DNA of 64,000 bases from Candidatus Methylomirabilota bacterium. GTDB taxonomy: Bacteria; Methylomirabilota; Methylomirabilia; Rokubacteriales; CSP1-6. Below the pieces are notes generated by a model. It did no database searches and was not told where the DNA came from. It worked only from the letters and a program-made list of their open reading frames with translations. The position numbers and the translations under genes are program-made. Below are positions 1 through 37,513 of this stretch, piece after piece (position 1 is the stretch's first letter; every line of letters begins with the position of its first letter). The DNA is taken from positions 37,283 through 101,282 of the forward strand of contig DASYUQ010000033.1 of assembly GCA_036001065.1 (NCBI GenBank), written 5' to 3'.

Positions 1-519
1 ATCACCGCGGTCCGCTATGCGCGCGAGCGGGGCGTGCCATACTTCGGGATCTGCCTGGGCATGCAGTGCGCGATCATCGAGTTCGCCCGCAACGTCTGCA
101 CCCTGGCCGGCGCGAACTCCTCGGAGTTCGATCCCGGCTCCCCCCATCCGGTCATCGACCTGCTGCCGGAGCAGCGGGCCATCGCCGCCAAGGGCGGGAC
201 CATGCGCCTGGGCCTCTATCCGATCGTGCTCGCCGAGGGGAGTCTGGCGGCGCAGCTCTACGGCCGGTCCATCATCCACGAGCGCCACCGGCACCGGTAC
301 GAAGTGAACAACGAGTATCTACAGCAGCTCGAGAAGAACGGCCTCCGCGTATCGGGCGTCTGGGCCGAGAAGCAGGTCGTGGAGATGATCGAGCTGCCCG
401 AGCACCCTTACTTCGTGGCCGGACAGTTCCACCCCGAGTTCCGCTCGCGCCCGTGGGACCCGCACCCGCTCTTCGCCGGCTTCGTGCACGCGGCCCTGGC
501 GCACGCGGGCCTGGCATGA
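1..519 (+). CDS. pyrG: CTP synthase, C-terminal glutamine amidotransferase domain (5' partial, gene continues upstream of the window)
   Basis: Frame-1 translation from nt 1 ([22 protein letters not shown]...) carries the class-I GATase Cys (GICLGMQ) and the HPEF region. Stop is TGA 517-519. Confidence 0.9.
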
Positions 520-570
520 GCCGTCCTATGTTTATCGAAGAGTGGTATCGCGTCCAGAGCGCGCTCCTTC

Positions 571-700
571 GAGCGCCGGTTTTGCCGGCGCAATCCTTTG
601 GGGAGGTTCGGAGGGGGCCGCGCGGCCCCCTCCGACTTGGGGTCTCGGACGGGGCCGTCGCGCCCTGTGGGCGCGCCTGTGAAGGCGCCCCCTCCGACCT
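571..700 (+). repeat. GC-rich REP-like tandem-hairpin repeat, copy A (long form)
   Basis: CGCCGGTTTTGCCGGCG hairpin plus a GGAGGGGGCC-GCGC-GGCCCCCTCC hairpin plus a third GC hairpin, ending CCCTCCGACCT-ATG(kdsA). Between pyrG and kdsA. Confidence 0.75.
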
Positions 701-1546
701 ATGAGCGCGTCCACCCGGGAGGTGCGGGTCGGCTCGATCCCGATCGGCGGGGGTCATCCGCTGGTCCTCATCGGCGGCCCCTGCGCCATCGAGAACGAAA
801 AGCACGCACTCATGACCGCCGAGCGCCTCGCCACCATCGCCGCCGACCGCCGGGTCCCCTTCATCTACAAGTCCTCCTATGACAAGGCCAATCGCTCGTC
901 GGCGGACGGCTATCGCGGGCCCGGCCTGCAGGAGGGCCTGCGCATCCTTCGCCGCGTCCGGGACGGGGTGGGCGTGCCGGTGCTCTCCGACGTGCACCAG
1001 GTAGAGGAGGTGGCGCCTGCCGCCGAAGTCCTCGACGTGCTCCAGATTCCCGCCTTCCTGTGCCGGCAGACGGACCTGGTCCTGGCCGCGGCCCGTACGG
1101 GGAAGCCGGTCAACGTCAAGAAGGGCCAGTTCCTGGCGCCCCAAGACATGAAGAACATCGTGGACAAGGTGGTGTCGACGGGCAATCAGAGCGTGCTGCT
1201 GACCGAGCGCGGCACGACCTTCGGCTATCACAACCTCGTCGTCGACATGCGCGGGCTCATCCAGATGCGAGAGCTCGGTTTTCCCGTCGTCTTCGACGCC
1301 ACCCACTCCGTGCAGCGGCCCGGTGCCGGGGGCACGCGCTCGGGCGGCGAGCGCCAGTACGTGCCCGCGCTCGCGCGCGCGGCCATCGCCGTGGGCGTGG
1401 ATGCGCTCTTCATGGAGATGCACGAGGACCCCAACCGCACGCTATCAGACGGGCGCCCGCTGTCGGACGGGCCGAACATGCTGCGCATCGACGACCTGCC
1501 TCGGGTGCTCGATGAAGTGTGCGCGATCCGGGCCGCGCTGCGATGA
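701..1546 (+). CDS. kdsA: 2-dehydro-3-deoxyphosphooctonate aldolase (KDO-8-phosphate synthase)
   Basis: 281 aa ORF ([43 protein letters not shown]...) with DAHP/KDO8P-synthase family hallmarks. It sits in a kdsA-kdsD-lptCAB context. The ATG at 701 is the last bases of repeat copy A. Confidence 0.9.
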
Positions 1547-10568: not shown

Positions 10569-11729
10569 ATGACGAACATGGCGCGGGACGAGTACCTGTT
10601 CACGTCGGAATCGGTCACGGAAGGTCATCCCGACAAGATCGCCGATCAGATCTCCGACGCGGTCCTCGATGCGATCATCGCGCAGGATCCGATAGGACGG
10701 GTGGCCTGCGAATCACTCCTCACCACCGGCCTGGTGGTGGTGGCAGGCGAGATCACCACCGCGTGCTACGTCGACATCCCGCGTATCGCCCGCGAGACGA
10801 TCCGGCAGGTCGGCTACACCCGCGCCAAGTACGGCTTCGATTCCGACACGTGCGCCGTGATCACGGCCATCGACGAGCAGTCCTCCGACATCGCCATGGG
10901 CGTGGACAGCCTGGGCGCGGGCGATCAGGGGCTGATGTTCGGCTTCGCCTGCACGGAGACGCCCGAGTTCATGCCGCTGCCCATCACGCTGGCCCACAAG
11001 CTGGTGATGAGGCTGGCCCAGTTGAGGAAGTCCGGCGCCATCGACTGGCTGCGACCGGACGGCAAGTCCCAGGTCACCGTGCGCTACGTGGACGGCAAGC
11101 CGCGCGCGGTGGAGACGGTCGTCGTCTCGACCCAGCACGGTCCCGACGTGTCGAGCGAGCGGATCCGCGAGGACGTCATCGAGCAGTGCATCGTGCCGAC
11201 GATCCCCGCCGAGCTGCTGGACCGCAAGCAATGCGTCTTCCACGTCAACCCGACCGGACGGTTCGTGACCGGCGGCCCGATGGGAGACACCGGCCTCACC
11301 GGACGCAAGATCATCGTCGACACCTACGGCGGCTCCTGCCCGCACGGAGGCGGGGCCTTCTCCGGCAAGGATCCCACGAAGGTCGATCGCTCGGCCTGCT
11401 ACATGGCCCGCCATGTGGCCAAGAACATCGTGGCCGCCGGCCTGGCCGAGCGGGCGCTGGTGCAGGTGGCCTACGCCATCGGTGTGGCCGATCCGGTCTC
11501 GATCATGGTGGACACCTTTGGCACCGGGAAGGTGCCGAACGCGAGGCTGCAGGAGATGATCCGGCGCCACTTCGACTTCACGCCCGCCGGAATCATCAAG
11601 TACCTGAACCTGCGGCGCCCCATTTACAAAAAGACGGCGGCGTACGGGCACTTTGGCCGGTCCGAGCCGGAATTCACCTGGGAGCGGACAGATCGGGTGA
11701 AGGACCTGCGCGACGACGTCCGCGTCTAA
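10569..11729 (+). CDS. metK: S-adenosylmethionine synthetase
   Basis: [39 protein letters not shown] and [16 protein letters not shown] motifs. Confidence 0.95.
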
Positions 11730-11848
11730 TCGGATGGGGCGGACGTCACGGCCTCGCGGCCCCGTCCGGATCCATAGTCGGAGGAGGCCTCACGGACCCC
11801 TCCAAGCCACCCCAAAGGATGATTGCGCCGGCTTCGCCGGCGCTCGAG
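11728..11848 (-). repeat. REP-like repeat, copy C (inverted orientation)
   Basis: The reverse complement reads CGAGCGCCGGCGAAGCCGGCGCAATC..CCTTTGGGG..GGAGGGGTCCGTGAGGCCTCCTCCGAC..GGACGGGGCCGCGAGGCC...CGCCCCATCCGATTAG. It starts at the metK stop codon. Confidence 0.7.
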
Positions 11849-13191: not shown

Positions 13192-15906
13192 ATGAGACGA
13201 TCCCAAACAGCTGTCCTGCTCGTCCTGGTCCTCCTGGTCCTGGGCCTCGTCGGGCAGATCGTCCCCCTCTACACGGATTGGCTCTGGTTCCAGGAGGTCG
13301 GCTACGTCCAGGTCTTCCTGACGACCCTTTGGTACCGAGGCACGCTCTTCACCGCCGTCGCCCTCGGCGTCCTCGTGTTCCTTTACGCGAACCTGACCTT
13401 CGCCGCCCGCACGGCGCGTCCCGACGTGCTCTGGGAGCTGGAGGACCAGCTCGGCCTGCCCGGCCGAGTGGTGATCGAGCCGCTCCTCCGCCGGTTCCTG
13501 CCCATCGTGCTCGCGTTCATCTCGTTCACCTCGGGCCTGCGGGCCAGCGCCCACTGGGAAACCGTCCTCGGCTACCTCAACGCGGTGCCGTTCAACACCA
13601 CCGACCCGCTCTTCGGCCGGGACCTGGCGTTCTTCGTCTTCACGCTGCCGTTCTGGCGCCTGCTGAGCGGCTGGGCCACCGCGCTCGTCGTGGGCACGCT
13701 CCTGCTCACGGTCCTGGTCTACGTGCTCCAGCGAAGCCTGGTGCTGACGGCGCGCGGCCCGCGGCTGGCGGCCGGCGCCCGGGCGCATCTGCTGGTGCTG
13801 GGGGCGCTGCTGCTGGCGCTCGCCGGCGTCGGGTTCTGGCTGGACCGGTTCGAGCTGGTCTACTCCCCACGCAGCGTCATCTACGGGGCCGCCTACACCG
13901 ACGTCCACGCCTCGCTGCCCGTGCTCCAGGCGCTGGCGGTGCTGGCGGTCCTCTGCGCCCTGGCCTGCCTGCTGCAGCTCACGCGCACAGGCCTCAGGGT
14001 CGTCGGGGCCGGCGTGCTCGTGCTGGTCGCCGTCTGGGTGGTGGGCCTGGGCATCTATCCCGCGCTCCTGCAGCGCTTTCGGGTCGCCCCCAACGAGCTG
14101 GTCGCCGAGCGGCCGTTCATCGTCCACAACATCCGGATGACCCGCCAGGCCTACGGGCTCGATCGCATCGAGGAGCACGAGTTCCCGGCCGACGAGACGC
14201 TGGATGCCCGGGCGCTCGAGCGCAACGTGCTGACGATCAAGAACATCCGGCTCTGGGACCACCGGCCGCTCCTCCGGACGTTCGCGCAGCTCCAGGAGAT
14301 CCGCACCTACTACAAGTTCGTGGACGTCGACAACGACCGCTACACGCTGAACGGCGAGTACCGGCAGCTCATGCTGTCGCCGCGCGAACTGTCCTACCCC
14401 CACCTGCAGGGGGCGCGGAGCTGGATCAACGAGCACCTGACGTTCACCCACGGCTACGGCGTGATCGTGGGGCCGGTGAACCGGATCACGTCCGAGGGGC
14501 TCCCGGAGCTCCTGGTCAAGGACATTCCTCCCAAGAGCGACGGCTTCGCCAAGATCACGCGACCCGAGATCTACTTCGGCGAGATCTCCAACGACTACGT
14601 GCTGCTGCGCACCCGCTCCCAGGAGCTCGATTACCCGGCCGGCGACCAGAACGTGTACACGACCTACCGGGGAACGGGTGGAATCCCGCTCTCGTCGTTC
14701 CTGCGCAAGGCCCTCTTCGCCGCGCGCTTCGGCGAGATCAAGATGCTGCTCTCCCACGACCTGACGGCGGAGAGCCGGGTCCTGATGCACCGGGCGGTCG
14801 CCGAGCGGGTGCGGCTCATCGCGCCGTTCTTCCGCTTCGATCGGGACCCGTACATCGTCGTCACCGACGACGGACGCCTGGTGTGGATGCTCGACGGCTA
14901 CACCACTACCGACCGCTACCCGTACTCGGAGCCGGTCCGCAACGTCGGCAACTACATCCGCAACTCGGTCAAGGTCACGGTGGACGCCTACCACGGCGCC
15001 GTCGGGTTCTACCTGGCCGACTCGACCGACCCCATCGTGCGCGCCTACGCCCGCGCCTTCCCCGGTCTCCTCCGCCCGCTGGAGGAGCTGCCCGCCGACC
15101 TGCGCCGGCATCTCCGCTACCCGGAGGACTTCTTCGCCATCCAGGCGCGGAAGTACGCCGTCTATCACATGCTGGAGCCCCAGGTCTTCTACAACAAGGA
15201 GGACCTCTGGGCCGTCCCGCGGCGGACCGTCGACGGCCGCGACCGCGAGATGGAGCCCTACTACACGATCATGCGGCTGCCCGGCGAGAAGCGGGAAGAG
15301 TTCATTTTACTGACGCTCTTCAACCCCTCCCGCCGGGACAACATGATCGCGTGGCTGGCCGGTCGCTCGGATCCGCCGAACTACGGGCGCCTCGTCGTCT
15401 ACAACTTCCCCAAGCAGAAGCTCGTCTATGGGCCCCGCCAAGTCGACGCGCGCATCGACCAGGACCCCGTCATCTCCCAGCAGCTGTCGCTCTGGAACCA
15501 GCGCGGCTCGACCGTGATCCGCGGCTCGCTGCTGGCCATCCCGATCGACCAGTCGCTGATCTACGTCCAGCCGCTCTACCTGGCGGCGTCCGAGCAGGGT
15601 GCGCTCCCCGAGCTCCGCCGCGTGATCGTCGCCTACGGCAATCAGATCGCGATGGAGCCGACGCTGGAGCAATCGCTGGCCCGCGTCTTCGGCGGGCGGC
15701 TCGCCAGCCCCGCGGCCGCTGTCCCGGCGCTCGGTCCCGGTGGGCAGCGTGAGCCGGCGCCTCCGCTCCGCGCCCTGGGCCACCGCGCCTGGGAGATCTG
15801 GCAGCGGGCGCAGGACGCGCTGCGACGGGGAGACTGGACCCAGTACGGCGCGGAGCAGAAGCGTCTGGAAGAGACGCTGCGCGCCCTCACCGAAGCCAAC
15901 CGCTAG
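13192..15906 (+). CDS. UPF0182 family large membrane protein (about 900 aa, N-terminal multi-TM region)
   Basis: MRRSQTAVLLVLVLLVLGLVGQIVPLYTDWLWFQEVGY... resembles the actinobacterial UPF0182 family. The ORF-track entry 12568..15906 is longer because its frame runs open through the ahcY 3' end. Confidence 0.7.
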   Translation: MRRSQTAVLLVLVLLVLGLVGQIVPLYTDWLWFQEVGYVQVFLTTLWYRGTLFTAVALGVLVFLYANLTFAARTARPDVLWELEDQLGLPGRVVIEPLLRRFLPIVLAFISFTSGLRASAHWETVLGYLNAVPFNTTDPLFGRDLAFFVFTLPFWRLLSGWATALVVGTLLLTVLVYVLQRSLVLTARGPRLAAGARAHLLVLGALLLALAGVGFWLDRFELVYSPRSVIYGAAYTDVHASLPVLQALAVLAVLCALACLLQLTRTGLRVVGAGVLVLVAVWVVGLGIYPALLQRFRVAPNELVAERPFIVHNIRMTRQAYGLDRIEEHEFPADETLDARALERNVLTIKNIRLWDHRPLLRTFAQLQEIRTYYKFVDVDNDRYTLNGEYRQLMLSPRELSYPHLQGARSWINEHLTFTHGYGVIVGPVNRITSEGLPELLVKDIPPKSDGFAKITRPEIYFGEISNDYVLLRTRSQELDYPAGDQNVYTTYRGTGGIPLSSFLRKALFAARFGEIKMLLSHDLTAESRVLMHRAVAERVRLIAPFFRFDRDPYIVVTDDGRLVWMLDGYTTTDRYPYSEPVRNVGNYIRNSVKVTVDAYHGAVGFYLADSTDPIVRAYARAFPGLLRPLEELPADLRRHLRYPEDFFAIQARKYAVYHMLEPQVFYNKEDLWAVPRRTVDGRDREMEPYYTIMRLPGEKREEFILLTLFNPSRRDNMIAWLAGRSDPPNYGRLVVYNFPKQKLVYGPRQVDARIDQDPVISQQLSLWNQRGSTVIRGSLLAIPIDQSLIYVQPLYLAASEQGALPELRRVIVAYGNQIAMEPTLEQSLARVFGGRLASPAAAVPALGPGGQREPAPPLRALGHRAWEIWQRAQDALRRGDWTQYGAEQKRLEETLRALTEANR

Positions 15907-15985
15907 ATTAGTCGGAGGGGGCGGACGTTACGGCCCCCTCCGAGGCCTCCCCCAGGAAGGGATTGCGCCGGCGGAGCCGGCTCTC
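15904..15985 (-). repeat. REP-like repeat, copy D (short, inverted orientation)
   Basis: The reverse complement reads GCCGGCTCCGCCGGCGCAATCCCTTCCTGGGGGAGGCCTCGGAGGGGGCCGTAACGTCCGCCCCCTCCGACTAATCTAG. It begins at the stop of the UPF0182 gene. Confidence 0.7.
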
Positions 15986-16036
15986 AAAAGCCCGCGTCGC
16001 GCGCACCACCCTTCTCGATGCTGAATCCGGAGACCG

Positions 16037-16126
16037 CTAGTGCCGTTCCAACTATTCGCGCCTAGGAAGGCACCGTGTACGTCGTTCGTGGACAGATTTA
16101 GTATCAACAAGTTGGAACGGTACTAG
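16037..16126. repeat. 90-bp MITE/ERIC-like element with 16-bp terminal inverted repeats (copy E1)
   Basis: CTAGTGCCGTTCCAAC...GTTGGAACGGTACTAG. The right TIR supplies the TAG stop of lptFG (minus strand). It lies 33 bp after REP copy D. Confidence 0.7.
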
Positions 16127-22220: not shown

Positions 22221-22954
22221 AAGGGGCCCGTCCCCCGGCCGCGTCGGCGCCGGCGATCGTCAGGCTCGGCGCCGTGGAATCGACGCAGGCCGTGGCCTTC
22301 GAGCTGGCCGAGCGAGGCGCGGCCGATCGCACCGTCGTCCTCGCCGATCACCAGACCGCCGGGAGAGGACGACGCGGCCGGGCGTGGAACGACGAGCCGG
22401 GCACGGGCCTTCTCGTCTCGATCGTGCTCCGCCCGCGCCTGGCGCTGCCGCGCCTGCCGCTGCTGTCCTACGCCGCCGCGATCGCCGTGGCCGAGGCACT
22501 GGACGGGGTCGCCGCGCTCCGGCCCACGCTCAAGTGGCCGAACGACGTCCTCGTCCGCGACCGCAAGATCGCCGGTATCCTCCTGGAGTCGCGCATCGGC
22601 GCGGCGGCCGCGACCGTCGTGGTCGGCATCGGCGTGAACCTCACCCAGCGGCGCTTCCCGGCCGAGCTCGAGGGGCGGGCGACATCGATCGCGCTGGAGA
22701 CCGGCCGCACGGTGGAACGGGAGCCGGTCCTGGGCGCACTCCTCGGCGCGTTCGACCTCTGGCGGGGCCGTCTGGAGGCGGACGGCTTCGCGCCCGTGCG
22801 CGAGCGCTGGCTCGCGCTGAGCGAGACCATCGGACGGCGGATCAGCGTCGACGGCCGGGCGGGCCTGGCGGTCGATGTCGATCTGGAGGGCGCGCTCCTG
22901 CTCCAGGACGGCCCGGGCCTCCGGCGCGTGCTCGCCGGCCCCATCGAAGGCTAG
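22217..22954 (+). CDS. birA: Biotin--[acetyl-CoA-carboxylase] ligase (group I, no HTH domain)
   Basis: GRGRRGRAWN biotin-ligase motif. The GTG start overlaps the valS stop. Its stop codon TAG lies inside the CTAG end of repeat E2. Confidence 0.8.
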
Positions 22955-23040
22955 TGCCGTTCCACCGATTCGCGCCGAGGGAGGCACCGTGTACGTCGTT
23001 CCTGGCCAGATGTAGTACCACCACGTTGGAACGGCACTAG
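22951..23040. repeat. 90-bp MITE/ERIC-like TIR element (copy E2), about 85% identical to E1
   Basis: CTAGTGCCGTTCCACC...GTTGGAACGGCACTAG fills the whole birA-coaX gap. The left TIR supplies the birA stop TAG. Confidence 0.7.
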
Positions 23041-30154: not shown

Positions 30155-31097
30155 GTTCGAGCAGCCGCTGCTGGAGCTGGAGGCCCGCATCGCGGAGCTC
30201 CAGGCTCAGGACGATCCCGCCCAGCGCGAGGAGATCGCCAAGCTCGAGGAGCGGCTCCAGCGCCTCCGGCAGAAGACCTTCGCCAGCCTCACGGCCTGGC
30301 AGACGACGCAGCTGGCGCGCTACCCGCGGCGCCCCCACACCCGCGACTTCTGCCGACTGCTCCTCGAGGACTTCATCGAGCTCCATGGCGACCGGCTCTA
30401 TGGCGACGACCCGGCGATCGTCGGAGGGCTCGCGCGCTTCGACGGCTACGGGGTCGTGGTGATCGGTCACCAGAAGGGGCGGGAGACGCGGGAGAAGATC
30501 GCGCGCAATTTCGGGATGCCCCACCCGGAAGGCTACCGCAAGGCGCGCCGACTCATGCAGCTCGCCGAAAAGTTCGGCAAGCCGGTCATCAGCTTCATCG
30601 ATACGCCCGGCGCCTACCCCGGCATTGGCGCCGAGGAGCGCGGCCAGGCCGAGGCGATTGCCCGGAATCTCCGCGAGATGGCCGCGCTCCGCACCCCCAT
30701 CGTCGCCGTCGTCACCGGCGAGGGGGGCAGTGGCGGCGCGCTGGCCATCAGCATGGGCAATCGCGTGCTCATGCTCGAGCACGCGGTCTACTCCGTCATC
30801 TCACCGGAGGGCTGCGCGGCCATCCTCTGGGGCGACGCGGCCAAGGCGTCGGAGGCCGCGGAGATCATGAAGATCACCGCGCGCGACCTCTTCCGGCTCG
30901 GCGTGATCGATGCCATCGTGCCCGAGCCGCCGGGGGGCGCCCATCGGGACTGGGAGGGGGCGGCGGCCAATCTACGGGCCGTGCTGACGGAGCACCTCCG
31001 GGAGCTGCGGGCCAAGAGCCCCGAGACGCTGGTCAGCGAGCGGTACGAGAAGTTCCGGCGCATCGGGACCTTCGAGGAGGAATCCCTCCCGCGCTAA
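30138..31097 (+). CDS. accA: Acetyl-CoA carboxylase carboxyltransferase alpha subunit
   Basis: The start overlaps the dnaE stop. [26 protein letters not shown] motif. Confidence 0.92.
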
Positions 31098-31252
31098 GCG
31101 GGCCGGCGGCGCGCCGGGCAGGGTCCGCCGACCCGTTCGCGCCGCCTAGGACTTCGCGCCAGACGGTGTATGGGAACGGCACAGCGGGGTGCCTGGCGCC
31201 AGAGCTCGTGGTCGCCGGATCCTGCCCGGCGCGCCGTCGGCCCGCTTAGCGC
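31091..31252. repeat. 32-bp inverted repeat (31/32 match) flanking a 98-bp spacer
   Basis: Left arm GCGCTAAGCGGGCCGGCGGCGCGCCGGGCAGG (31091-31122). The right arm (31221-31252) is its reverse complement with one mismatch. The arms embed the TAA stops of accA and sorC. Confidence 0.7.
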
Positions 31253-32236
31253 TTGAGGACCGCTTGGGCGACATCCTCGTCGGTCACCAAGACGTTCATG
31301 AACCGGCCCCGCAGCGCGCCGCGCACCGCCTCGATCTTCGACTTGCCGCCGGCCACGGCGATGACATAGCGGTCGTCACGGCGCGACAGCTCCTGCAGGC
31401 GCTCGCCCCCCACCGACAGGACCCGCCGCATCAGCGCCCGCAGTTCGGGCTCGTCGACGATCCGGCCCTCGGCGTCGAAGGGCTGGTAGTTGATCTCGCC
31501 CACGATCCCGAACTCCCGCAGCCGCTTGACGCTCACGCCGTAGGACTCGGCCAGGGAGCAGAAGCCCGGCGTCTGCTCGCCGATCTGGCCGACGCCGACC
31601 AGCGCGATGTCCACCGCCTGGGCCGCCTCGTAGATCTGCCGGACCTCGGGGTCGCGCAAGAGCCGTCGCCGCTCGCGCTCGATCTGCCGGAGGGAGACCA
31701 GGTGCTGCACCGGCAGGGCGTAGGCCGTCACGGGGGGACGGTACTTGGCCGCCATCATGCCCACCAGCGTGTTGGGCGACAGGTCCACCAGCTTCAGCGT
31801 GCTTTCTCCGGAGAGGGGATAGAGCGCCAGGTCGCGGACCCGGCGCTCCCGCAGGGCCCGGATGGTGTGATAGAGCGTGAAACCACAGGAGAGGCCCACC
31901 CGCATGCCGTTGGCGGCGACCTTCTCGAAGTAGGCCGCGGCGGCCACCCCCAGCTCTTCCTTCACGTCGCTGCGGCCGCCGGCGGCGATGACCACCACGT
32001 CGCGCAGGCCGAAGCGCTCGGTCAGGGCCGTCTCCAGCTCCTGGGTGCGGGGGAGATCCAGCTCCACGCGGACCAGGCCCTCGTCGAAGGCGCGCTTGAG
32101 CAGCCGGGAGACGGTGGCCGCCGACACGCCCAGGGCGCTGGCGATGTCCTTCTGGCTGCGCCCCTGGCGGTAGTAGAGCTCCAGGCACTGCACCATCTGC
32201 TTCAGCTCGCCGGGGCGGTGAGAAATTAATTTCATG
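31246..32236 (-). CDS. SorC/DeoR (CggR-like) family transcriptional regulator with a sugar-phosphate-binding domain
   Basis: N-terminal HTH (DIASALGVSAATVSRLL) plus a SorC sugar-binding domain. Divergent from the FBP aldolase/phosphatase gene. Confidence 0.8.
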
Positions 32237-36982: not shown

Positions 36983-37038
36983 TGCCGGAGCGCCGGTGAG
37001 CGCTCCTGTGTCAACCCAAAAGTCGCGCGCGCTTCCTC

Positions 37039-37144
37039 GCGCGCCGGCTTCGCCGGCGCAACCCTCCGGGGTGGTTGGGAGGGGGCCGCGAGGCCCCTTC
37101 CGACCAGGGATCTCGGAGGGGGCCTTCGAGGCCCCCTCCGATCT
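37039..37144 (+). repeat. REP-like repeat, copy B
   Basis: CGCCGGCTTCGCCGGCGCAACCCTCCGGGGTGGTTGGGAGGGGGCCGCGAGGCCCCTTCCGAC..GGAGGGGGCCTTCGAGGCCCCCTCCGATCT-ATG. Between the GT4 gene and the hypothetical 37145 ORF. Confidence 0.75.
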
Positions 37145-37513
37145 ATGAGCGCCCGCGGGGAGGGGCTGCGGCGTATCGAGAAGGACATCGTCGCCGAGAA
37201 GGCGGCGACCCTCGGCCGCGCCGGCGAGCGCCTGGAGCAGGCCCTGGCCGAGGTGACCGAGCTCGGCGCCCGGCTCGCTGCGGCCACCGATCCCCAGGAG
37301 CGTGCCCGCCTCGGTCCCGAGTACGAGCGCGCGCGCGCGCGCGCCGCCAGCGCGCGGCTCGGGCTCCTGATTCAGCGTGAGGCGATCGGCCTGCGCCATC
37401 ACCGGATCGTGGACCAGCAGTTTCCCGAACCGCCACCGCTCGAGGCGGGGCCTTGCAGCCGGGGGACGGCAGTCGCAGGGAGCGCATCGACCGCGCCGAC
37501 CCCGCTGCCATGA
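37145..37513 (+). CDS. Hypothetical 122-aa coiled-coil protein, translationally coupled (ATGA) to the PaaK-like ligase gene
   Basis: GC3-rich coding texture. Its ATG (37145) is supplied by the end of repeat copy B, the same CTATGAGCGC junction as kdsA. Confidence 0.45.
   Translation: MSARGEGLRRIEKDIVAEKAATLGRAGERLEQALAEVTELGARLAAATDPQERARLGPEYERARARAASARLGLLIQREAIGLRHHRIVDQQFPEPPPLEAGPCSRGTAVAGSASTAPTPLP

Follow-up and report, generated by a model that had tools for sequence, protein, structure and literature searches.

The DNA studied here is a 64-kb window (64,000 nt; contig DASYUQ010000033.1, positions 37,283 to 101,282, forward strand) from a Candidatus Methylomirabilota bacterium (assembly GCA_036001065.1). 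Its subject is a composite hairpin repeat, of which direct reading and a profile search find exactly four copies, A to D, in that window. All lie between genes whose identity is confirmed by Pfam: copy A between pyrG and kdsA, copy B between a GT4 glycosyltransferase gene and a DUF6665 gene, copy C between metK and ahcY, and copy D between a UPF0182 gene and a fused LptF/G gene; the names pyrG, metK, UPF0182 and GT4 proposed in an earlier note on this DNA are thereby borne out. In our reading, to which we assign a probability of about 0.62, the repeat is a small mobile DNA element, some 90-180 bp long, non-coding and non-autonomous, that occupies gene-end spacers in genomes of Candidatus Rokubacteria (Methylomirabilota), is specific to that group and has not been described before, and that belongs to an ordinary kind of bacterial repeat.

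Four copies in the window

The window copies share one order of modules. Hairpin 1, GCGCCGG(C)-loop-(G)CCGGCGC, forms a perfect palindrome of 7-8 bp; it is followed by CAAYC and by a short variable spacer ending in GGGG(A/T)GG, and the series closes with TCGGAGGGGGCC-loop-GGCCCCCTCCGA hairpins, one to three in number. The exact 12-mer GCCGGCGCAAYC is confined to these four sites in the 64 kb, and an nhmmer profile built from 121 relatives matches the window only at the four copies and at the extra hairpin unit of copy B; direct reading, 12-mer search and profile thus agree on the sites and the module order given in the earlier note. The predicted folds of the copies are the hairpins it described. 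Its remark that a U-tract is absent also holds, since direct reading and folding showed no run of T after any hairpin on either strand of any window copy. Three of the four copies (A, B and D) have flanking direct repeats of 6-8 bp. The features are as follows.

516-521 (+): direct repeat ATGAGC, left of copy A; contains the pyrG stop codon TGA (517-519)
522-700 (+): copy A, full extent, 179 nt, bounded by the ATGAGC repeats
522-572, 573-591, 600-606 and 608-635 (+): head, hairpin 1, GGGGAGG and hairpin 2a of copy A, respectively
645-697 (+): hairpin 2b of copy A, with a nested GCGCCC/GGGCGC hairpin inside
701-706 (+): direct repeat ATGAGC, right of copy A; supplies the kdsA start codon (701-703)
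11730-11848 (-): copy C, old and degenerate, with hairpin 1 at 11825-11843, hairpin 2a at 11778-11805 and hairpin 2b at 11730-11770; its tail base 11730 adjoins the metK stop codon TAA at 11727-11729 (0 nt), and its head boundary is uncertain, between 11848 and about 11885
15899-15906 (+): direct repeat ACCGCTAG, 8 bp, left of copy D; last codons and TAG stop of the UPF0182 gene
15907-16032 (-): copy D, full extent, bounded by the ACCGCTAG repeats
15912-15943, 15945-15955, 15965-15983 and 15984-16032 (-): hairpin 2, CCTCCCCC motif, hairpin 1 and head of copy D, respectively
16033-16040 (+): direct repeat ACCGCTAG, right of copy D
36997-37003 (+): direct repeat TGAGCGC, left of copy B
37004-37145 (+): copy B, full extent, with its head (TCCTGTGTCAACCC...) at 37004-37040; the last base, 37145, is the A of the DUF6665 gene ATG
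37041-37059, 37068-37074, 37076-37103 and 37113-37141 (+): hairpin 1, GGGGTGG, hairpin 2a and hairpin 2b of copy B, respectively
37146-37152 (+): direct repeat TGAGCGC, right of copy B

The four copies do not all stand in the same relation to their neighbours. Copies C and D are read as reverse complement in the mRNAs of their stop-side genes (C in the metK-ahcY transcript) and reach the stop codon through the hairpin-2 end, directly in C and with 5 nt to the UPF0182 TAG (15904-15906) in D. Copies A and B have the opposite orientation: their hairpin-2 end meets a start codon (kdsA ATG at 701, DUF6665 ATG at 37145), the tail being followed by 3-4 nt and then ATG, and the hairpin-1 core begins about 50 nt past the pyrG and GT4 stops. 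The earlier description of copies placed exactly at gene 3' ends and beginning at or near stop codons is therefore accurate for C and D only; A and B simply fill the whole spacer from stop to start. The 8-mer ACCGCTAG occurs only twice in the window, on the two sides of copy D.

All four copies lie in the first 37 kb (1-37200), a conserved block of housekeeping operons, and none in the 27 kb from 37200 to 64000, which holds efflux, redox and TRAP-transporter genes. The proposal that the head of copy C is homologous to the long head of A, B and D was withdrawn, as CCAGGACG is part of the native ahcY leader and is also present in relatives free of the element. Likewise withdrawn was an ortholog of copy B in L016 (L-numbers such as L056 or L126 label the related loci compared), where the copy sits between ABC-transporter genes; the CTATGAGCGC flank common to L016 and copy B reflects either a common target preference or chance.

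Anatomy and distribution of the family

When one genome per prokaryotic species was scanned for the exact pattern, at least 120 contig stretches matched, so the family is not confined to the window. Among the matches listed, nearly all are from metagenome-assembled genomes (MAGs) of Candidatus Rokubacteria, Rokuibacteriota or Methylomirabilota, of many species and from soil, groundwater and lake samples; matches in Streptomyces and Thermoflexus lack hairpin 1 and were dismissed as chance. The window itself matches JGI soil metagenome contigs, and one related locus, L056, belongs to the MAG 'Rokubacteria bacterium 13_1_40CM_69_27' and is 92-98% identical to the window in the flanks compared. 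With nhmmer, 139 near-full copies were found in 0.94 Mb of loci ascertained for the element. Copy density amounts to 4 per 64 kb in the window and 16 per 0.91 Mb in loci chosen irrespective of the element, and about 35 additional copies lie in 0.87 Mb of loci picked for one copy, which as a rough guide suggests a hundred or more copies per genome. Some copies form tandem or head-to-head pairs, and a head-to-head pair between convergent genes gives each stop codon a tail (L056, L071).

No Rfam 15 family reaches its gathering threshold in the window (0 matches), and at permissive thresholds copy A gives only chance-level matches (best 19 bits vs. a threshold of 42). The consensus has no blastn match in a plasmid collection, and no description of this element was found in the papers searched for the motifs and for Rokubacteria repeats. 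Full copies are also present on contigs outside Rokubacteria bins (L012, L033, L059, L065 and L077, Acidoferrum MAG; L052, L074 and L078, Limnocylindria MAG; L004 and L108; L043; L085; L014), the bins being assigned to Acidobacteria, Chloroflexi, Deferrimicrobiaceae, Verrucomicrobiia and Actinomycetes. Mis-binning of Rokubacteria contigs is the more likely explanation for these than horizontal spread.

Throughout the family the order of modules is hairpin 1 (GCGCCGGC-loop-GCCGGCGC), CAAYC, a variable spacer, GGGGGAGG, and then one to three GGAGGGGGCC/GGCCCCCTCC hairpins. The core can be written as TTCGAGCGCCGGC-loop-GCCGGCGC-CAAYC-(3-12 nt)-GGGGGAGG-TCGGAGGGGGCC-GTCGA-GGCCCCCTCCGA, and its consensus as aligned is TTCGAGCGCCGGCTTYGCCGGCGCAAYC-N3-12-TGGGGGAGGC-N1-3-TCGGAGGGGGCCGTCGAGGCCCCCTCCGA. 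A weakly conserved head of 10-45 nt precedes the core and 4-5 terminal nt follow it; in some copies the last hairpin unit is repeated or carries a nested palindrome, and the G+C content of the family is about 75%. The 3' end is constant (CCGA plus 4-5 nt), the 5' boundary set by the duplications ranges from 10 to 45 nt upstream of TTCGAGCGCC, and most copies end sharply at TTCGAGCGCC, the heads falling into a few subfamilies. An extended head motif, GTCGGAGTAAC, is present in 22 of 133 heads (about 17%), and its TCGGAG mirrors the CTCCGA of the tail.

Hairpin 2 was found 113 times within composites but only five times alone, which rules it out as an independent repetitive extragenic palindrome (REP) unit and shows that the composite, not the palindrome, is what propagates; the core unit of about 85 nt propagates whole. 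Conservation extends to four unpaired motifs, TTCGAG, CAAYC, GGGGGAGG and the GTCGA loop of hairpin 2, which suggests sequence-specific recognition.

In the two proposed helices, 97.5% of the cells in an alignment of 120 distinct copies are standard pairs. Changes on both sides of a pair were observed in 14 cells, at four pairs, compared with 1.7 ± 1.2 after shuffling (reached in 0 of 500 shuffles), and further compensatory variants lie outside the alignment, both in hairpin 1 (GCGCGGGC/GCCCGCGC, GCGGCGGC/GCCGCCGC) and in hairpin 2 (GGGGGGC/GCCCCCC, GGGAGCC/GGCTCCC, GGGGGAC/GTCCCCC). The dyad symmetry is thus under selection, because compensatory changes maintain the pairing. On the forward strand 57 G-U pairs are found vs. 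20 A-C pairs, which are G-U on the other strand, but 31 of the 57 go back to one inherited variant (TTCGA); with this variant set aside the counts are 26 and 20, so there is no sign that one RNA strand is selected. The metK-ahcY spacer of L154, L157 and L202 holds an old copy without hairpin 1, in which the hairpin beside the metK stop is kept with a compensatory G-C to A-T change (GGGAGGGAGCC/GGCTCCCTCC).

Insertion sites and placement relative to genes

Eighty loci fetched with the GH57 protein of the window (56-94% protein identity) have the gene order pyrG-kdsA-kdsD-...-rpoN-...-GH57-pgi-metK-ahcY-UPF0182, with lptFG convergent, and presence or absence of the element can be read from them directly. 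Apart from the window, it occupies the pyrG-kdsA spacer in 1 of 31 loci; it lies in the spacer downstream of kdsD in 1 of 37, between metK and ahcY in 9 of 40, and between UPF0182 and lptFG in 3 of 16 (once reversed, at the lptFG stop), and it is found in four other spacers in 0 of 28-51 loci; these counts are lower bounds, as the old metK-ahcY copy of L154, L157 and L202 scores too low for the nhmmer threshold at two of these loci. Empty pyrG-kdsA sites, those of most lineages, have overlapping stop and start codons (ATGA or GTGA). In the window this junction is split by the 179-nt copy A with its ATGAGC flanks, and in the closest relative, L126, by a version of about 100 nt flanked by ATGAGCC; the left flank gives the pyrG stop and the right one the kdsA start. 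In relatives without copy D, the convergent UPF0182 and lptFG stops overlap or lie a few nt apart, and the insertion of copy D is also present in the ortholog in L056.

Flanking repeats exceed what chance pairing of ends would give. Among 113 non-redundant isolated copies, compared with permuted head/tail pairs, repeats of at least 6 nt were counted in 23 (12.1 ± 3.3 expected; 0 of 500 permutations reach this number), of at least 7 nt in 10 (3.3 expected) and of at least 8 nt in 5 (1.1 expected), with clear examples in GGCTCAGAAC (L071), TAAGCGCC (L096), TCATCGG (L088), CTAGAAT (L094) and GCCGATG (L107). Copies are more similar within a MAG (identity 0.813) than between MAGs (0.777; 0 of 1000 permutations reach this), and the number of hairpin-2 units differs even between close relatives such as the window and L126. 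With variable occupancy, flanking repeats, within-MAG similarity and variation in hairpin units, the data are those of insertion, local amplification and decay, and they do not fit an inherited regulatory site. In the pyrG-kdsA spacer of L129 (3396-3497), L144 (3377-3514) and L185, two to three tandem copies of another motif (GTGCGAGGTGAGGCC plus about 40 nt) are found instead, so this junction was expanded independently more than once.

Spacers that contain the element are co-directional in 76 cases, convergent in 37 and divergent in 3, whereas those without it number 518, 53 and 86, respectively (chi-square 59.8, p = 1e-13). Divergent spacers are thus almost never used, yet they make up 31% of intergenic bases, and the enrichment at gene ends expected in the earlier note is real among the related loci. 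The median element-free spacer measures 17 nt when co-directional, 20 nt when convergent and 152 nt when divergent. Of 119 copies with a called neighbour, 87 have the tail toward a stop codon, 67 of these at 15 nt or less. In 58 of the 61 cases measured, 0-7 nt separate the stop from TCGGAGG, a gap of 4-5 nt being the most frequent. Within co-directional spacers the tail points toward the upstream stop 45 times and toward the downstream start 26 times (binomial p = 0.03). About ten other forward copies resemble A and B in having a start codon 3-11 nt past the tail that lacks a Shine-Dalgarno sequence of its own.

Stop codons beside the tail are TAG in 29, TAA in 15 and TGA in 17 cases, against 213, 74 and 383 over all genes, so that TAG and TAA account for 44 of 61 beside tails and for 43% overall. 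A YTAR/CTAG-type motif lies exactly 4 nt past CCGA in 30 of 152 copies; CTAG is found beside 20% of the tails but in 0.2% of random 12-mers of these genomes (about 100 times rarer), and in a genome of 70% G+C such TA motifs occur almost only at the ends of open reading frames (ORFs). We infer that three factors combine to bring the tail beside stops: native spacers are tiny, the end of the ORF is duplicated, and TA-rich (YTAR/CTAG) sites are preferred. A duplicated stretch of about 8 bp that takes in the stop and the codons before it would leave each neighbour with an intact end, as at copies D and A. The possibility that the element supplies the stop codon was ruled out: neither the type of stop nor the 0-7 nt spacer is constant, and metK has one length whether a locus is filled or empty.

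The family is overwhelmingly intergenic, with in-frame insertion in 2 of 139 copies. One of these (L101, 509-585) lies in purH near the start of the AICARFT domain and adds about 27 residues (SEGGSAPLPNLPPLDCAGKAGARTE...); the other (L038, 5455-5533) belongs to a decarboxylase-like ORF, in which it stands between the N-terminal TPP-binding domain and the C-terminal one and possibly fuses two genes. Four further ORFs (L117, L029, L024, L049) read through the element to a stop 9-57 nt past it, giving a predicted C-terminal extension of about 30 residues. Given these in-frame copies and read-through ORFs, insertion is not restricted to sites past stop codons.

Known repeat systems, alternative explanations and consequences

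In architecture and distribution the family is similar to REPs and bacterial interspersed mosaic elements (BIMEs), and in its duplications and presence/absence pattern to MITEs, or miniature inverted-repeat transposable elements. It shares with the REP/BIME repeats of enterobacteria the GC-rich extragenic palindromes with conserved linkers, the modular clusters, a copy number apparently in the hundreds per genome, a location at gene 3' ends and between convergent genes rather than in promoter spacers, and a hairpin number that varies between relatives. Unlike them, its unit of about 85 nt joins two different palindromes to single-stranded motifs, is accompanied by target-like duplications and has no GTAG-type 5' tetranucleotide, and no REP-associated tyrosine transposase (RAYT) was found in the window and 1.85 Mb of related DNA. 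With REPIN-RAYT systems it has in common a non-autonomous, lineage-wide and long-persisting family with genome-specific variant populations, but a REPIN consists of two inverted copies of one REP that fold into one long hairpin (PMC3337134), and here hairpins 1 (GCGCCGGC) and 2 (GGAGGGGGCC) are unlike and each pairs with itself.

It is accordingly improbable that the copies are REP/BIME or REPIN-type units mobilised by a single-copy, vertically inherited RAYT (a Y1 HUH transposase) elsewhere in the genome. The GC-rich modular palindromes with their variable hairpin number and their tandem and head-to-head pairs would suit such an origin, and E. coli REPs are reportedly also close to stop codons, a finding credited to Liang, Rudd and Deutscher in 2015. 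One sequence is kept across the whole lineage, as PMC3337134 and the RAREFAN preprint describe for REPIN-RAYT systems. Set against this are the joining of two different hairpins by conserved single-stranded motifs, the near absence of solo hairpin 2, and the lack of a candidate enzyme in the DNA covered: E. coli RayT gave a best tblastn E-value of 1.9 in the 1.85 Mb of related DNA, and the genes flanked by copies encode ordinary enzymes, although a RAYT gene is usually flanked by its repeats (Bertels and Rainey; PMC3116915, PMC3337134). The excess of flanking repeats and the unique 8-mer pair at copy D also differ from an IS200/IS605-like insertion. For transposition of that type, to our knowledge, no target duplication is expected. 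The earlier note's selfish repeat can therefore be kept in the broad sense of a multi-copy, intergenic sequence that is found at some orthologous sites and not at others and has target-duplication-like repeats on its flanks, but its REP/REPIN-RAYT label is not supported.

The resemblance to MITEs, including the Correia element, lies in the small size (below 500 bp), the non-coding, multi-copy and intergenic nature, transcripts that form stable stem-loops, flanking repeats that are seen on younger copies and fade with age, and clustering or nesting with other repeats (PMC10969869). The family, at 90-180 bp, non-coding, with 139 copies in 0.94 Mb and 4 in the window, and with flanking repeats such as ACCGCTAG (D), TGAGCGC (B), ATGAGC (A) and GGCTCAGAAC (L071), agrees in part with the definition of a MITE (PMC10969869), the exceptions being clear terminal inverted repeats, which measure 4-30 bp in MITEs, and a known parent insertion sequence; MITEs are also typically AT-rich, in contrast to the 75% G+C of the family. 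SPRITE is likewise a small dispersed repeat with a terminator-like hairpin at gene ends, but it has the canonical terminator shape, whereas our family has no U-tract, occurs in both orientations and shows no sequence relation to it. Rickettsia palindromic elements and intragenic enterobacterial repetitive intergenic consensus sequences (PMC10969869) are, like some copies, stop-free in some frames and found in-frame in genes, an event that is rare in the family. Integron attC sites, considered because they follow stop codons, form tandem cassette arrays of a single orientation; they were ruled out, as our copies are scattered through housekeeping genes, point either way and lack RYYYAAC and GTTRRRY core sites in their consensus. 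A CRISPR-type reading was ruled out on anatomy.

Two other repeats were seen in the window. A second, unrelated repeat of 90 nt (16037-16126 and 22951-23040, copies 88% identical) is a MITE with perfect 16-nt terminal inverted repeats beginning with CTAG (CTAGTGCCGTTCCAAC...GTTGGAACGG(T/C)ACTAG). Its terminal CTAGs provide the stop codons of lptFG (16123-16125) and of a lipoate/biotin ligase-family gene (22952-22954), the first of its copies lies in the ACCGCTAG repeat on the right of copy D, and no further copy was found in the 1.85 Mb of related loci. Inverted 49-nt arms (31085-31133 and 31210-31258; 90% complementary, 76 nt apart) fill the spacer between convergent accA-like and sugar-binding regulator genes; a related arm (84% over 55 nt) is present in the UPF0182-lptFG spacer of L127, and the arms are possibly a separate foldback (REPIN-like) family. 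Apart from these repeats, TGGTATCGAAATTGCA (2563-2578) fits the -24/-12 pattern of sigma-54 promoters (TGG-N9-TTGCA); it precedes lptC-lptA-lptB-rpoN, with 10 nt to the ATG of lptC (2589), and is kept in L126, L127 and L154 while the surrounding spacer varies.

Could the repeat instead be an RNA element selected by the host, a terminator without U-tract or a barrier to 3' exonucleases placed after stops in a lineage that lacks canonical terminators? The family would then exist because the host needs one structure at many gene ends. The strong 3'-end bias, the avoidance of divergent spacers and the 0-7 nt distance of most tails from the stop speak for it, and canonical hairpin-plus-U terminators are not enriched, a consensus scan of 1-20 kb having found none at the copies and three matches elsewhere, compared with 5.0 ± 2.1 expected. 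At metK-ahcY, moreover, compensatory changes (GGGAGCC/GGCTCCC, GGGGGAC/GTCCCCC) preserve hairpin 2 as the remainder of the copy decays, and a different hairpin is present there in some relatives free of the element. Yet an intrinsic terminator is a hairpin followed by a U-tract on the transcribed strand only, and the copies have no T-run and occur in both orientations, even within co-directional spacers; A and B stand directly before start codons within apparent operons, most orthologous gene ends lack the element, and flanking duplications and genome-specific variants point to transposition. The absence of a G-U bias outside one inherited variant and the conserved unpaired motifs, which would be superfluous for a simple terminator, add to this, and we regard host selection as the reason for the family as unlikely. 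Termination or RNA stabilisation, as suggested in the earlier note, would be a putative function of the element, and a role as an RNA 3' hairpin is plausible. Any transcript crossing the hairpins will fold into them, and a strong one lying 0-7 nt past a stop is within the footprint of the terminating ribosome. REPs at 15 nt or less from the stop are said to lower expression of the upstream gene in E. coli (Liang, Rudd and Deutscher in 2015), and REPs reportedly stabilise upstream mRNA (Newbury and colleagues in 1987). A more elaborate and rather doubtful possibility is that the element acts as a mobile gene-junction cassette for compact operons. In one orientation it would place a strong hairpin in the terminating-ribosome footprint, and in the other the unpaired GGGGGAGG would act as Shine-Dalgarno sequence, folding of hairpin 2 bringing it to about 5-13 nt from a start codon that lies 3-11 nt past the hairpin. 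For A and B this function of GGGGGAGG is speculation by analogy; phage T4 gene 38 is an analogue of a hairpin-bridged Shine-Dalgarno sequence. If true, overlapping stop and start codons, such as the ATGA of the ancestral pyrG-kdsA junction, could be parted by the element and an essential gene downstream would not be silenced, which would account for its retention and conservation across the lineage.

E. coli BIMEs bind gyrase and IHF, and the conserved unpaired motifs with the loop GTCGA, which suggest sequence-specific recognition, might likewise mark sites on double-stranded DNA that gyrase, a nucleoid protein or a regulator of the host binds, the palindromes being operator-like. However, the compensatory double changes keep pairing and not sequence, only 3 of 116 spacers with the element are divergent, which leaves no link to promoters, and presence/absence and flanking duplications would require mobility anyway; we consider this very unlikely. 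Still more remote is retroposition in the manner of short interspersed elements, through an RNA intermediate and target-primed reverse transcription with the 3' hairpin as recognition element. A constant 3' end, variable 5' boundaries, duplications of 6-20 nt and the absence of terminal inverted repeats would agree with it, but most copies share a sharp boundary at TTCGAGCGCC, at TTCGAG, rather than random truncation, tail-only copies are rare (5 vs. 113), the heads form few subfamilies, and no reverse transcriptase was seen near copies.

The mobile-element reading that we favour builds on what the sequences show, namely membership and distribution of the family, its presence or absence at orthologous sites, its flanking repeats and its pairing; beyond this we infer a mobilising enzyme, a rule for its targets and possible effects on RNA. 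A putative enzyme acting in trans would insert the element by a staggered cut, duplicating about 6-10 bp of a target that would preferably be a TA-containing, stop-codon-like site (YTAR/CTAG), or TGAG for the A/B subfamily. As native gene-end spacers measure only some 17-20 nt, surviving insertions would be those in which the duplication re-creates the neighbouring ORF end or start, and they would place the hairpin-2 end a few nt from a stop codon in C and D and from a start codon in A and B. Mobilisation as single-stranded or cruciform DNA most likely needs the dyad symmetry. Transcribed hairpins would inevitably form stable structures in 3' untranslated or inter-cistronic regions that may make transcripts more stable or attenuate them, a role to which certain old copies may have been recruited.

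Several observations weigh against this interpretation. Pfam shows no transposase or RAYT in the window, the RayT search of related loci came out as described, 830 proteins encoded near copies cluster into ABC-transporter, dehydrogenase and similar families with no transposase, none being found either among the ordinary enzymes whose genes are bracketed by copies, and no autonomous copy, that is, a head and tail separated by a gene, was found in the sampled loci. There is no convincing terminal inverted repeat beyond the 6-nt TCGGAG/CTCCGA, the termini of duplication-delimited copies being otherwise unrelated. Recognisable flanking repeats accompany only about 10-20% of copies, their length varies (6-10 nt, once 13-20), and the 5' boundary is uneven. 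For gene calls in the related loci we relied on our own codon-usage gene finder, trained on those loci, which reproduces the database calls for the window. Between species with only 57-75% protein identity the core is unusually well conserved, something for which a purely selfish element offers no easy explanation, and the retention of hairpin 2 beside the metK stop in one clade, by compensatory changes while hairpin 1 decays, hints at host selection or co-option of at least some copies.

Rokubacteria are uncultured, abundant in soil and known only from MAGs, and a repeat of this kind affects assembly breaks, gene calling (read-through ORFs are mis-annotated at their ends) and operon prediction in their genomes; it is also usable as a lineage or binning marker. 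The copies with a strong hairpin 0-7 nt past a stop codon, or directly before a start codon, offer natural test cases. The family opens no new category of system, but it would illustrate how small hairpin repeats colonise what are the only safe sites of a compact, high-GC genome, namely the stop-codon-like TA motifs at the ends of ORFs.

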